A program made the position numbers and the translations under genes. A stretch of 64,000 bases of DNA, from contig NC_043000.1 of assembly GCF_006345805.1 (NCBI RefSeq), positions 154,628,001-154,692,000 of the forward strand, given 5' to 3'. Numbering within the stretch: position 1 is the first letter of the stretch; each line of letters starts with the position of its first letter. Source of the stretch: Octopus sinensis. Lineage: Eukaryota. The notes under the pieces were generated by a model, which was not told the origin of the DNA, searched no databases, and was given only the letters and a program-made list of their open reading frames with translations. This document shows, piece after piece, positions 186 through 52,090 of this stretch.

Positions 186-506
186 TGTGTCTAGGGAGAG
201 TCATTTTCTTTTTGTGCCTTATAATTTAACACACTCACTGGTAAAATTCCACATTATTTCTTATTTTTATTTTCCTAAAATTTTCGTTGCATCTTGCAAC
301 CTTTTCAAGAGTCAAAACTATTGAAAAAGTTTCAAGAAGCAACAAAAATTTTAGGAAAATAAAAATAAGAAATAAGTGGAAATTTTATGAGTGAGTGACT
401 TAAATTATAAGGCACAAAAAGAAAATGACTCTCCCCAGACACAACAGAATATATGCTTCAACACACGACTCACATAAAGAATCTTGCAAACCAAATCCCA
501 AAACGT
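186..506. mobile_element. (TA)n-flanked foldback cassette (~125-bp inverted arms), probable Penelope-like pLTR remnant
   Basis: 186-310 is the imperfect reverse complement of ~318-443 (e.g. gagagtcattttctttttgtgccttataatttaa / ttaaattataaggcacaaaaagaaaatgactctc). The right arm extends to ~506. (TA)n lies on both sides and a hammerhead-like motif lies near the centre. Confidence 0.7.
274..313 (-). ncRNA. minimal hammerhead ribozyme-like motif, U3-A8 core variant
   Basis: Minus strand reads TTGAAAA-G-GTTGC-AAGAT-GCAAC-GAA-AATT-T-TAG. The plus-strand arm (318-355) supplies CTA before TTGAAAA for a 3-bp stem I but has a mutated GAAA. Confidence 0.45.
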
Positions 507-730
507 AATATATATTATATATATATATATATATATATATATATATATATATATATATATATATATATTCATAAATGTATACACACATATTTACAAATGT
601 GTATATATATGTATATATATATACACATGCACACACATATATCATATACATGTATATATGTATACATATATATATGTGTGTATATATATTACACACACAC
701 ACACACACACACACACACATATATATAGAC

Positions 731-823
731 AGGTAGACCCTGAAGAAATTGCACCGGTATTATAGTAGGGTTGCAATTGCAATGGTTACTAATCAATGCA
801 TAGAAACATGTGTAGGTCTATTT
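731..823 (+). ncRNA. type I hammerhead ribozyme with long stem II
   Basis: Stem I TAGACC (734-739) / GGTCTA (815-820); core CTGAAGA (740-746); extended stem II hairpin; GAAAC (803-807); stem III ACA/TGT; GUA cleavage triplet (812-814). The base of stem II is imperfect. Confidence 0.75.
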
Positions 824-1659
824 GAGGCTATATATATATATAAAGGAATTAAGGGTACTATACAACTTTGTAATAATTATAATAATAATAATTATATATA
901 TATATATATAATAATATATAGATATATTATTATATATATATATAGTATATATATATATATGTATGTATGTATAGATATGCATCATATATGCATACATATA
1001 ATGTATATACACACACGCACACATATATCTATGTACATATATGTATGTATATATATTTACCTGTATATATGTAAAAGAGGATCTCTACCAAATCAATGGT
1101 AGAAAATTTAGTAGTCATATTGTAATACTAAAATGTAATTTGTTTGCTGCTTACCCACTCTTTGATAATGCATGTCAACACCCGTGTTCCCTACCCCAAG
1201 ATATATTATCCAAAGTGTAGGTTATAAAGCATTATACAAGTGTTAATTATATTGGATATTTCAAAGGGTGAAAGAATGAAACCAAACAATGTTTTCACAA
1301 ATGATGCAATCTCTTAATGTCTCTTAAAAATGGCATATCAACGTTGGAAGGAAAACAACACGCTTGGCAAATAACTATTATTGTTGCTTACCAAAGGGGA
1401 AAGCATTCCCCAAACAATATATGAAGAGCCTTAGTGGTATAACTGCAAGACAATACCCACAACCAGGAACAGTAGCAACAGCAACAGTATCTATTATGAT
1501 AATGATGAGGTGTGTAACAAAAATGGTAGCTACTATCATCAATAATAACCACAGATTGCTATATATGTGTGTGGTAGTTGACTATAGAAAAAAATCATAG
1601 TATGTCGGGGGCTGACCTTAATCTAAGTTTTTGATACCAACCCACCTGAAATGTAGAGA

Positions 1660-1850
1660 CATGTGGCTTTGGTTGTTAAACTCATGATTTTAAGATTGTG
1701 GTTTCAATTCCTGGACTGGGTGATACATATTCTTGAGCAAAACACTTCATTTCACATTGCTCCAGTTCACTCACCTAACAAGAATTTATATGCCATGGAA
1801 AGTGGGAAACCGGCCCTTATTAGTCAGCATGACTTGAGAAGGTAACTTTT
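1660..1850 (+). mobile_element. degraded tRNA-derived SINE, family B
   Basis: Similar to 14771-15035 (ttcttgagcaaaacacttcatttcacattgctccag). A further decayed copy lies at ~2160-2320. Confidence 0.7.
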
Positions 1851-3308
1851 TTTTAACCCACCTGAAACAACCTCTGATTCTAAGATACAAAACTGTCTAC
1901 TTTAAAATGATCATACATAGATTAATAGCTTTCATAATTATTTTATTTATCTAGTAGATCAACAGCAGTAGTTTGCAGTAAGAATAACTATTAAATTCTT
2001 TTAAATGCTCAGAGGGCTTTTATTTCCATATAAGGCCTTCTATCTCCTGGGATAGTTGAAGTACTCAGAGAAAACACCTGTATTATATACAATTGCTTAT
2101 TCAACTAACCATCAGATTTTAAAAATTACTTTTATATTTATTGTATGTATTTATATGTGTGCGAGCAAGTGGCTAAGTTGTTACGATGTTGGATTCATGG
2201 TCATATGGTCATGGGTTTGGTTCTTGTACAGGGCAATGCATTGTGTCCTTGAGCAAGGCACTTCATTTTATATAGCTCCAGTCCTCTCAGCTGAAAACTG
2301 AGTACCTGTCTAGAACTGTTGCAGCCTTCTGTCTCCACCAGCTGGCACATCATGGATATTGCACAGGCAAGATTGAGTCTGCTCAGAACTACATGGGAAA
2401 GTTAAAAATCTAGTGAAACTATAGTATGTATTACTAAGTTATACTTATTTGAGGGTGATGGCTGAGGTAGTTTTGCTTTTATGTATATAAATAATGAAAT
2501 GTGTGTATGAATGTATATGTGTTAATTTTGTATGTGTGTACTTCAATAACCATCATCAGAAAAACTATTTTGATGCCATAAAATGATAGATCCTTCCCTG
2601 TACACCTGTCTCCTAAGCAGTGGCTTAGTGTGGGTGTATGTGTGAACAGCACAAAGTGGTCACTTTATATATGTTTGCTGTAGTCACAGATATGTTACAC
2701 TTATAGAAAGAATCAGTTCCCAATGGTTCTATCACTAATTTGAGCTAAGGTAGGATTGGTCAAATACTGAATTAACATCAAAGCAAATTGCTGAAGACTG
2801 CTTTATAGATATAATTAAACGATAAAAGAGGACCCTTTGTTAAAGATATTATGACACCAGTGAAAAGATAATTAGGGCCATATATATGAAAATCTAAATA
2901 TTACTGAAATAGTTGTATGGCAATAATTTAAGCTGTAAACTAAAGTAGTATTGCATACATAAAGGGTCTTTATTTTTAGGGTGGATAACATAAAAGGGAT
3001 TCTGTGACATTCATATTTTTCTCAAGGACATTTGTTGTATACATGAAGTAAGATTTTATAGGTCATAGTCTTAGGTTTACTTGGAGCTTATTTACTTTTT
3101 GCTCTACGGTGCCTTTTAAAAATATCTGGAATAGCACATCTAAACAAGCACGCAACATGCACGCATGCACACACACACACACAAACACAAGCAAACACAC
3201 TAACACACACATACAGAAACACTCTAATTTCAACCTTTATCTTAAATTAGATGATCTATTTTATGAAAATATATTCTAGTTATGAAACATTATTATTATG
3301 CTTTAGAA

Positions 3309-49809: not shown

Positions 49810-50190
49810 TAACTTCAGTATTGTTTCTGTAAATAGTTTATGATATTTTCTGTTGTAAAATATTTCTTGATTAATACTACGAAGTCGTAAGCTACATTTG
49901 ATGCTATAATTAGGCTGAAGAATGAATCAAACCAGCTGATTCTTCTTTTACTCTTTCTCCTTGTTTACTGTGTATTTGTGAGGATTTTATGCATACACTT
50001 GAATCCACCAGCTTTCAGGCTTTGTGGTAAAATGGTGCTGCTTGATTGAATATGCCTTTGTTGGAAGAAGTTATTAAGGTTCTCTGGCTTATGTTGTTGT
50101 TTGGTTATCGATGGTGGTGGTAGTAGGGGTTTAGAAATATCTATCCATATTTAGAAAGATAGTTAGGATATCATCTAGGTACAGGCCTAT
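49810..50190 (-). pseudogene. decayed Penelope-like element reverse transcriptase/linker region
   Basis: Frameshifted minus-strand segments IGLYLDDIL (cf. GLYRDDGL), SSNKGIFNQAAPFYHKA and RISWFDSFFSLIIASNVAYDFVVLIKKYF..YHKLF (cf. IIWFNPPYS..TNIGKxFL.LIDKHF..HKIF). T-rich related sequence may extend to ~47900. Confidence 0.7.
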
Positions 50191-50637
50191 AATGCACATT
50201 GTGGATGTTTTTGTATGTTGTTCTTATAACGTATATATATGTGTGTGTGTATACACACACATATGTATATGTATATAGATATATATTTATATATTACATA
50301 TTATATATATTTACATACATGCATACATACACACACTCACTCACACACACAGACACAAATGCACAGACACAGTCAGACATGCACACAAACACACGGACAC
50401 AGACTCACACCACACATACACACACACACTCACACACACACTCACACGCACGCACACACACACACACACACACACACACACACACACACACACACATTTT
50501 TTAGTATCATTTGCAAGAATTTTGATGTGGAGTTATGTATTGGAACAGAATTGTTTGCACTTTAGGAAGTACAATTTACTGAAAATAAAAAGAACAGACA
50601 TATTGACTGTATTGTACATTTTAAATGAAATTAATTT

Positions 50638-50885
50638 TTTGATCTATTGATGGATCAGCCAATCACCACATTAATCATAATACTTTCAACACAAATGATT
50701 CATCAAATGGTTGCTTAGTTAATTAGTTAACTAGTGGAATGAAAAATCAAATAACGGTATGTATATTTCATATATTTTATGATTTTCATTCCACTAGTTA
50801 ATTAACTAATCAATTATTCAATGAGTCTTTTCCGTCAAAAATATTCTGATAAAATACCTGATTGGTTGATCCAGTAATTGATCCA
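50638..50885. repeat. old foldback (~100-bp imperfect arms)
   Basis: ttaactagtggaatgaaaa / ttttcattccactagttaa and tggatcagccaatca / tgattggttgatcca. Confidence 0.75.
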
Positions 50886-51799
50886 ATGATTGATTGACAT
50901 GAAAAAGTAAGAACCAAATCAATGCATGAAAATGTTTTTAACAAAATGAATTCTTTGGAGTGCAAGAACTTCTGTTTGAATACACAATTTCTCCACCTAC
51001 CACACACACACACACACACCACACACACACACACACATGCATAAGTATAAATAGGCTGACCCATCTCATTGCTGGGTCCACCTTCTCAACCCACTCCATA
51101 ACAATTACTACTTAGTTCCCACTCTCCTTCACAGTAAAGCTTCACGTCACTCTTCCCATTCCCCTTTCCTCTCCTCTGACTTAGCTATTATACCCACCCA
51201 GCATTGGTCCCACTTTTATTTTCTCCACTACCATCCTCTCATAACAATAAATCTGTTCTGGCCATCATTGAGATGTCCTTTCACCACACAAGCTACAATG
51301 TGACCCTATCAATGCTGGTGACACAAAAAACACCTTGGATATCCTGTAAGTGGTTGGTAGCTTCTGTTGAGCCATGACAATATAAGGGCTAAGAATGTGT
51401 TCTTTTGTCTTGTGAGTGGCAAAGTAACCTCTTTAGAGCTGGTGCCATGATAAAATGCATGCAATGCTCTTAGCACAGGGGTTGAAGTTATGAAGGGCAT
51501 CCAGCAGTAGAAACCATGTCCAAATTGAGACATTGCAGGAAGTTATGATCATCTAACCCACTGAATCCTGTTGAGCTGTTAAACTCATGCCAACATAGCC
51601 CATGGATCTATAACGGTATTGATGATGATGATGATACAGATATATATATATATATACGTTTGTGTCATTTGATCTATTTATCTATCTATATATGTATATA
51701 TATATATAAACATATATATAAACATATATATTAATATATATATATATATATATATATATATATATATATATATATGCATGTATGTATTTTATACATGTA

Positions 51800-52090
51800 T
51801 TTAGATATACTTTGGTTTTGCATTTGACTTTCAAGATTCTTGATGGGAATTTGTATCTTGAAACAAATGTTGTATCATGGAAGGGTCAAGAGGCATTGAT
51901 GAGGTTGCAAATAGTAATGAAAGGACTTTGACAAACAAACAGCTGTTTGATTGTTTAATCAACACATTAAACAAAGTATCAGTTAGTTTGTTGGTTAGGT
52001 TTTTAACCAAATGACTAACAATAAAGAAGTGATATTGACCGTGTCTGTGTATTTACTATAATGGCATAATGACCCTTCCAAGGCATAAGA
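51800..52090. mobile_element. decayed relative of the 186-506 cassette
   Basis: tttggttttgcatttgactttcaagattcttgatg resembles the reverse complement of 455-505. Contains TTGATGA-G-GTTGC-AAATA-GTAAT-GAAA at 51896-51922. Confidence 0.5.

Follow-up and report, generated by a model that had tools for sequence, protein, structure and literature searches.

Hammerhead ribozyme motifs and Penelope-like element ends in (TA)n-rich DNA of Octopus sinensis

Hammerhead islands in the window and their genome-wide families

A 64,000-nt stretch of the Octopus sinensis genome (NC_043000.1, positions 154,628,001 to 154,692,000; referred to below as the window) contains a set of short islands that are bordered by (TA)n tracts and carry hammerhead ribozyme (HHR) motifs. 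A preliminary description, made from the sequence alone, had reported both the motifs and their (TA)n borders, and both were present on re-examination. These islands are very probably the 5'-truncated and often inverted 3' ends, or pseudo-long terminal repeats (pLTRs), of Penelope-like elements (PLEs), with HHRs that would cleave their own RNA only when two copies pair through helix III. The window is AT-rich and microsatellite-dense, with 2.8 TA runs/kb compared with 1.5 elsewhere. Its features are listed in Table 1, and inverted-repeat structure, absent from the preliminary description, was found in the islands at 186, 38086, 43191 and 51800.

The genome (2.72 Gb) was searched with seven islands, each of which yielded 346–2402 first-look candidates; 40 candidates were scored per island and 25–30 loci were kept. 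Seven of eight islands are members of genome-wide repeat families, labelled A to G. In the aligned copies, all seven family majorities show an HHR core, helix II and a self-complementary helix III, which upholds the reading of the islands as HHR families. CUGANGA and GAAA with U16.1-H17 are the majority state in families A, B, C and F, and the other majority cores have U3-A8 (G), U3 with G8 (E) or CUGUCGA (D). Helix I is 4–5 bp or longer in most families and about 2 bp in G. Family A has CUGAAGA, 31 nt to GAAA, a near-palindromic helix III and a GUU site; family B has CUGAAGA, 57 nt to GAAA and GUA; and family C has CUGAUGA, 54 nt to GAAA, an 8-bp helix II and GUA. Full copies of family F elsewhere in the genome have the canonical CUGAUGA, G10.1-C11.1, a GUC site, a helix III that is a perfect palindrome and a structured helix II of 54 nt. 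Their canonical 5' half bears out the earlier assignment of position 43191 to an HHR 3' half, and the U3-A8 pair reported earlier at 274–313 is the majority state of the family to which the 186 island belongs.

The frequency of the motif was assessed with a descriptor that combines the core with a palindromic helix III and with helices I and II of 4 bp; its relaxed core list was set after the families were known. The window has 1 strict and 3 relaxed matches, whereas 60 local dinucleotide shuffles average 0.03 and 0.05. A sample of 80 pieces of 10 kb taken at round coordinates (800 kb in total) gave 11 strict and 18 relaxed matches, and each of 8 shuffles gave 0–1, so that the fold is more frequent than in the shuffles. 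The density of complete motifs in the sampled genome is one per 44–73 kb. This is 4–7 times rarer than the one cassette per 10 kb given earlier, a figure that counted fragments in a TA-rich window. A looser descriptor applied to all collected loci gave 230 matches in 38 clusters, 24 of which are singletons. The richness of HHR families is real, and some of the singleton clusters may be chance. One cluster, L083, resembles the published Hydra-1_oBim HHR in a match made by eye.

A (TA)n tract of at least five units lies within 200 nt on the 3' side of 9/18 descriptor matches and 24/30 family matches, compared with 443/4000 control points. On the 5' side the numbers are 5/18, 11/30 and 446/4000. 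The predicted (TA)n enrichment is therefore present, but the link, although real, is not specific to HHRs, because an unrelated short interspersed nuclear element (SINE) used as a control shows the same (55/100 with such a tract within 200 nt 3'). In a SINE-like repeat of the window (55166–55330; 100 matches in 800 kb), (TA)n begins no more than 30 nt from the 3' end in 48/100 copies.

Two window motifs, at 731–823 and 38086–38159, had been described as complete. Only the family A motif at 38097 passes the strict descriptor (CUGAAGA, a 31-nt helix II region, a near-palindromic helix III and GUU); its island also holds an antisense arm with tail extension at 37876–38034. The family B copy at 740 has a damaged helix II, with one base lost at the foot of a region that spans 57 nt in the family. 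The motif at 16387 does not have the CUGANGA core attributed to it. Its core is CUGUCGA, with U in place of A6, which is the state of the whole family D; it has an extra A after A9, a 4-bp helix II, a loop-less helix III and GUA. The motif said to occur twice at 46563–46655 does exist in two copies, but these are decayed (46574 and 47732) and represent one insertion, because both lie inside a tandem duplication of about 0.93 kb (45801–46730 and 46950–47888; 98.4% identity over 941 columns) that contains the C tail and SINE pieces. The duplication is either a recent event or an assembly artefact. A motif is present at 51893–51932 as described and its family has the HHR layout, but the window copy (51896) is decayed, with U3 and G8 in the core and tandem G-A in helix III. 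Among ten window islands compared, those at 186 and 51800 share the sole sequence match (56 bp at 73%), as reported before; families E and G are distantly related.

No relative of the 10698 island was found among the loci collected from the genome, and the motif at 63409, which the preliminary description does not list and for which no second copy was found in these loci, is a single-copy candidate. About 200 bp between TA runs (43612–43808) form an almost perfect fold-back, probably a further inverted PLE end, and the 3' tail of another HHR cluster follows at 43834–43895. An Rfam scan of the window gave no hammerhead among the best 150 of 329 matches. These were all below threshold, nearly all of them microRNA models on microsatellites, and with the 179 weaker matches lying outside this set the scan is uninformative.

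Table 1. Hammerhead islands and PLE-related features of the window (positions are those of the 64,000-nt stretch).
Feature	Position	Strand	Remarks
Family G fold-back element, fixed, between (TA)n	184..506	-	25/25 loci with opposite arm (query favoured fold-back copies)
G HHR core with U3-A8	276-308	-	Decayed second arm 321-353 (+)
Family B: 5'-truncated 3' end of Hydra-type PLE	728..828	+	HHR 740-814, GUA site
10698 island: GAAA and short palindrome (10697-10707)	10690..10735	-	Possible HHR 3' half, candidate only
Family D: 3' end of Neptune-type PLE	16278..16476	-	Minimal HHR 16386-16413
Family A inverted pair, 3' end of Hydra-type PLE	37876..38185	+	Sense HHR 38097-38147
Family F: antisense tail joined to HHR 3' half	43088..43251	+	3' half at 43191-43202
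Family C: 3' end of Hydra-type PLE	46522..46686	+	HHR 46574-46647, helix II decayed at CpG sites
Family C, second window copy	47680..47845	+	Core 47732-47806; product of local tandem duplication
Decayed Hydra-type PLE open reading frame	49541..50230 (about)	-	YLDD-like remnant near 50180, linker after the reverse transcriptase, GIY-YIG
Family E, old (about 80% identity)	51776..52089	+	Antisense tail and decayed HHR 51896-51928
Further HHR-like motif	63409..63467	+	Core CUGCAGA (C6), palindromic helix III, GUA; 5' of (TA)n tract

Linkage to Penelope-like elements

Linked open reading frames (ORFs) show that three Hydra-type families and a Neptune-type one are PLEs; for the rest this identity is likely. 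The extension of the islands to ORFs with reverse transcriptase (RT) plus GIY-YIG, suggested earlier, thus succeeded in these four families and not in E, G and F proper. Same-strand pieces of Hydra-type ORFs lie upstream of the HHR in 3/30 loci of family A, 7/30 of family B and 4/25 of family C. In family B the seven loci have a GIY-YIG piece upstream, and one further locus has an inverted arrangement. The ORF pieces of B and C were assigned to the Hydra type through similarity only, with 33–60% identity. The order ORF, 3' untranslated region (UTR), HHR and (TA)n was seen in L301, L302 and L317 (Hydra-type) and in L341–L344 (Neptune-type). In L317, a single insertion consists of an inverted copy, an ORF piece, the 3' UTR and a sense A HHR, and ends in (TA)n.

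A young Hydra-type family was found through a protein search, with frames of up to 717 aa and an A-type HHR in 20/20 of the regions fetched. L301 is organized as pLTR-ORF-pLTR. The 717-aa frame of L301 and L302 contains RWK, DKT, CxCX5C and, in the endonuclease (EN), CxxC and CxH; it has no CCHH, and the element is shorter than 3 kb. These motifs are all the Hydra-clade diagnostics given in section 11 of PMC8557442. The HHR of this young family is related to that of A but has C4 (27 copies in the set), and is referred to as family A'. Many near-identical copies with the RT motif YKDD occur (L301–L316, L319 and L320; for example, C5:61732000-61741000 and C3:133908500-133917000), and the family is a candidate active element. 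Long open frames (443–569 aa) without a match to the Hydra query lie beside the Hydra elements in L306 (2-1330, +), L311 (7503-8852, +) and L316 (1249-2955, -). Pfam recognized neither the Hydra frame nor two ORF pieces.

A second set of frames (L341–L343), labelled Neptune-type on the basis of motifs, contains DKG, a CX4CXXC linker that is shared by Nematis, and a CCHH-type GIY-YIG. The frame matches RVT_1 with an E value of 1e-7, and its GIY-YIG match is weak (E 0.008) and under the cut-off. A D-type HHR is present in 34/36 loci with Neptune-type ORFs, and both pLTRs are present in six. This Neptune-type PLE (L341–L356; for example, C10:29230500-29239500) is young, with about 4.5 kb between the pLTRs, frames of 850–1000 aa and a long pyrimidine-rich 3' UTR, and its protein has 18,855 first-look candidates. 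An exon-like frame lies on the same strand 660 nt behind the intact element of L341 (7037-7213, +), and presumably resembles a purple acid phosphatase exon. It had no Pfam match, no upstream exon was found by motif, and it was not used as evidence that the elements are tolerated in introns. If the exon is genuine, this element may lie in sense orientation within an intron of the host.

The window itself contains a PLE remnant at the place where a decayed RT had been reported (49810–50190). The remnant is longer, however, spanning about 49541–50230 on the minus strand, and corresponds mostly to the post-RT linker and GIY-YIG (profile positions 438–647 of 714; E 9e-6 and 0.005). It is riddled with stops and frameshifts, no HHR was seen behind it, and a DNA search with it gave just 4 relatives, short and weak. 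Another stretch, 60131–60370 (+), aligns weakly (E 0.03) with the Hydra-type profile at its endonuclease end and is possibly a second decayed PLE piece.

Inverted arms were found in 13/30 loci of family A, 1/30 of B, 3/25 each of C, D and E, 10/25 of F, and 25/25 of G, whose genome query contained the inversion centre and so favoured fold-back copies. The 5' truncation, partial tandem or inverted copies, and tail extension on one arm were seen in L301, L317 and L341; inverted copies with one-sided tail extension have already been described for PLEs. The HHR tails are ordinary truncated or inverted PLE insertion ends. The PLE origin, the many families and the dimer-type helix III of the preliminary description therefore stand, but its separate class of cassettes does not.

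Families E, F and G could instead be non-autonomous (fold-back or SINE-like, akin to monomeric retrozymes) and mobilised in trans by PLE enzymes, a possible but tentative explanation that is compatible with the one favoured for A–D. No PLE ORF was found within 1.5 kb for E, G or F proper (25 loci each), the aligned G copies have one inversion centre in common, and the F copies are young (97–100%), with several beginning at the same short 5' hairpin. A preprint also derives animal retrozymes from PLE ends (bioRxiv 10.64898/2026.07.22.740005). Retrozyme-type tandem arrays, however, were not seen, a fold-back transcript would bury its own ribozyme, and both the 1.5-kb reach of the ORF search and the bias of the G query reduce the weight of these features. 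F-like relatives (73–80% identity) adjoin Hydra-type ORF pieces in L147 and L158.

Ribozyme structure, core variants and competing explanations

The preferred reading, in which PLE ends carry HHRs that act in pairs, was examined by folding. The helix III self-duplex is favourable in 8/9 sequences (-1.7 to -13 kcal/mol). As a monomer hairpin, helix III is unfavourable in 6/7 sequences able to form one and impossible in D and D'; that of C is marginally stable (-0.9 kcal/mol). This pattern fits the dimer model of PMC4209133, because helix III is stable between copies and unfavourable or impossible within one, except in C. According to that paper, single minimal PLE HHRs are inactive and dimers weak. 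In the folding model, an inverted arm leaves helices I and II of families A, F and G with a probability of 0.00, and the whole G element folds into one hairpin with the same probability, P(helix I, II)=0.00. A second copy on the same strand lies within about 1.5 kb in 5/185 loci.

In many HHR clusters the stretch from A9 to G12 is 31–97 nt long. Helix II of the F group forms a three-tier hairpin with compensatory changes at 5/16 pairs (12/20 copies aligned). In family C, 85.6% of the cells of the structure are paired, compared with 21–47% in slid controls, and two-sided changes occur at 7/18 pairs (25/28 copies); the paired share was reached by 0/500 shuffles. Helix II covariation is thus present in both families tested, C and the F group. 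RNAalifold gave a poor consensus for several families when applied to whole-family alignments, because of decay and mixed arms.

Differences from the column majority were counted in the aligned copies, which had been chosen by BLAST, with CpG and subfamily-split columns omitted. In the pooled families they amount to 60/2369 at core positions and 637/12029 at other positions. The excess of core conservation is clear only in C and F, both of which mix subfamilies, marginal in G, and absent in A, A', B, D and E, and in 5/8 copy sets core decay is not slower than that of the flanks. This unevenness points to selection on master elements rather than on inserted copies.

We infer from these features how the elements may use their HHRs. 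After a nick in (TA)n by the GIY-YIG endonuclease, the RT would begin copying at the 3' end and in most cases terminate early or fold back, so that 100–350-bp tails with the ribozyme would remain. Unit-length RNA would be released when the two HHRs of a full element flanked by pLTRs, or those of a tandem, form a dimer. The motif would be under selection in master lineages. Tails dispersed as single copies probably decay as silent passengers, and for fold-back copies the folding model predicts that a long hairpin buries the ribozyme.

Several observations weigh against this interpretation. The lack of linked PLE ORFs in E, G and F proper has been described above, and just 1/30 older Hydra-type ORF matches has an A-type HHR within 1.5 kb. 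The helix III self-duplex of G is unfavourable (+2.0), in addition to its short helix I. Most monomer motifs, intact ones included, do not reach the active shape in the folding model, and U6 and C4 cores may have little or no activity. The covariation was counted on related sequences, so that the shuffles overstate its significance.

Family D has a fixed U6 core, shared by about 14,000 exact copies and by no fewer than four subfamilies. Genome-wide, exact 30-mers number 13,816 with U6, 151 with A6 and 0 for reversed controls. U occupies position 6 in 99% of exact D copies and in both pLTRs of the intact elements. The conserved A6 of the Type I hammerhead is absent from D, and we call D hammerhead-like with a variant core because U replaces A6. 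N7 takes all four letters in both the U6 and the A6 30-mers, and N17 is A or U in 69/71 distinct copies (G in 1 and C in 1). In contigs of four sequencing runs (four organism codes), which were used for letter variation only, N7 and N17 vary and no other letter occurs at position 6 at an 8% threshold. The 36-nt D motif is 86–97% identical between subfamily representatives, compared with 55–84% for their flanks. The A6 copies fit back-mutation, because most of ten aligned resemble U6 subfamilies in their flanks, and L357 may be a true A6 sister. An alternative register of the D motif, three letters later, was rejected, since it would leave helix I open and allow free variation at position 4.

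No U6 core occurs in 44 rows of the 56-motif alignment of PMC4209133, and a file-wide search gave no core starting with CUGU or CCGA. U6 is also absent from the table of PMC8557442; this comparison leaves out Lunse et al., the main paper on PLE-HHR variants, which may list U6. In literature listings on hammerheads of octopus and on core variants, PMC8557442 is the sole description of these families. The position-6 variant named in PMC3088659 is A6C, which is rare and of low activity (kobs <0.1 per min), and the same source describes U4C as tolerated in a viroid. Two more octopus families (L021, L259, L005 and L245, in three clusters) have both CCGA and CUGA at core positions 3–6. Because CpG decay converts CCGA to CUGA, several families may have C4 as their master state.

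It is conceivable, though doubtful, that the most abundant PLE family runs on a hammerhead with A6U fixed at a core position regarded as almost invariant, as an unreported selected catalytic core, of low rate or dependent on a dimer or a protein, and that the long covarying helix II of the Hydra-type families acts as a new peripheral domain, either tuning the usual loop-loop contact or taking its place. We consider it unlikely that the D motif, and perhaps that of the C4 family A', no longer cleaves and that its fold is retained as a binding or priming signal for the RT of the element. The near-complete replacement of A6 in exact copies and in the pLTRs of intact elements would agree with a loss of cleavage, as would the low activity of A6C; non-cleaving roles are left open in PMC4209133, and Naiads spread without HHRs. 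On the other hand, the rest of the core is kept, with N7 free and N17 nearly always A or U, which is the pattern expected under selected cleavage, and the motif is better conserved between subfamilies than its flanks. The fixed U6 core separates motifs that cut from those that only fold in one assay. If U6 cuts, the hammerhead that is commonest in this genome escapes standard CUGANGA descriptors and counts of animal hammerheads are underestimates; if it does not, this would be direct evidence that PLE hammerhead folds have a role other than catalysis.

The preliminary description had also proposed that the dispersed HHRs cut intronic or nascent RNA genome-wide. Such cutting of host RNA is not supported, because complete motifs are as sparse as one per 44–73 kb, helix III depends on a second copy and the ribozyme is buried where an inverted arm is present; as a regulatory layer or a burden it is very improbable. 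The extrapolation from 11–18 matches per 800 kb to tens of thousands of complete motifs would speak for it, together with the lower variation of core positions in the pooled families and the marginal stability of the C helix III as a monomer. But the core excess is confined to few families and more than half of the copy sets show no slower core decay, same-strand partners are rare and fold-back copies are buried, and no host exon was recognized among 142 frames of the window. Published minimal PLE HHRs are, moreover, inactive as monomers and weak as dimers (PMC4209133). The 30-mer counts of D are strand-symmetric on the assembly (6827/6989), which says nothing on gene orientation. Chance matches in AT-rich, palindrome-rich DNA can be dismissed as an explanation and are already refuted for the seven families: although shuffles sometimes yield one match and single-copy candidates (10698, 63409 and some singleton clusters) may be chance, the sampled genome greatly exceeds its shuffles, the family majorities are more canonical than the window copies, and the motifs have a fixed position behind PLE ORFs.

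Comparison with known systems

HHRs with a palindromic helix III, targeting of (TA)n and an octopus Hydra element are already published (PMC4209133, PMC8557442), and the overall kind of feature is known. Relative to the literature compared, the fixed U6 core and the long helix II are new. The Hydra-clade PLEs described by Craig et al. (2021, PMC8557442), including Hydra-1_Obim, are the same short elements with a C-terminal EN, RWK, DKT and CxCX5C, without CCHH, and with (TA)n; almost every Hydra family there, including that of octopus, is listed with a (TA)n preference. The HHRs of these elements are also alike, lying near the 3' end with a 3–4-bp palindromic helix III, a loop of 0–3 nt and often GUU, and inverted 5'-truncated copies are described as well. 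That paper describes one octopus family, whereas more families are present here (38 descriptor clusters, not all ORF-linked), among them a young intact family with C4. The A9-G12 stretch is 31–97 nt in many of the clusters here and does not exceed about 26 nt in the Hydra rows of PMC8557442, where the only long A9-G12 stretches listed, marked as deviating, are those of two elements from spike moss and one from Chara.

The minimal metazoan PLE HHRs of the Neptune type (Cervera and de la Pena 2014, PMC4209133) share with family D a loop-less ACGU helix III and an extra base after A9, but family D differs from them by U6. The HHRs of PMC4209133 are also similar to those found here in having G10.1-C11.1, U3-A8 and U3-G8 cores, GUU sites and predicted dimer activity, and in occurring as thousands of single dispersed copies and as opposite-strand pairs 100–700 bp apart. 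Natural core variants (Perreault et al. 2011, PMC3088659) likewise include U3-A8 covariation, a rare position-6 variant and U4C. These variants are rare single sequences, whereas here U6 is the fixed state of four or more subfamilies; the variant named in that text is A6C, not A6U.

Animal non-LTR retrozymes (PMC7229834; bioRxiv 10.64898/2026.07.22.740005) resemble the octopus islands in being short non-coding repeats with a Type I HHR and a relationship to PLEs. Retrozymes form head-to-tail tandem arrays with an HHR in each unit, whereas the copies described here are single or inverted, with a same-strand second copy in just the 5/185 loci mentioned above, and coding elements are joined to four of the families. 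The genome contains young, intact representatives of two PLE clades, complete with both pLTRs, alongside tens of thousands of tails, which makes the role of PLE hammerheads directly testable.

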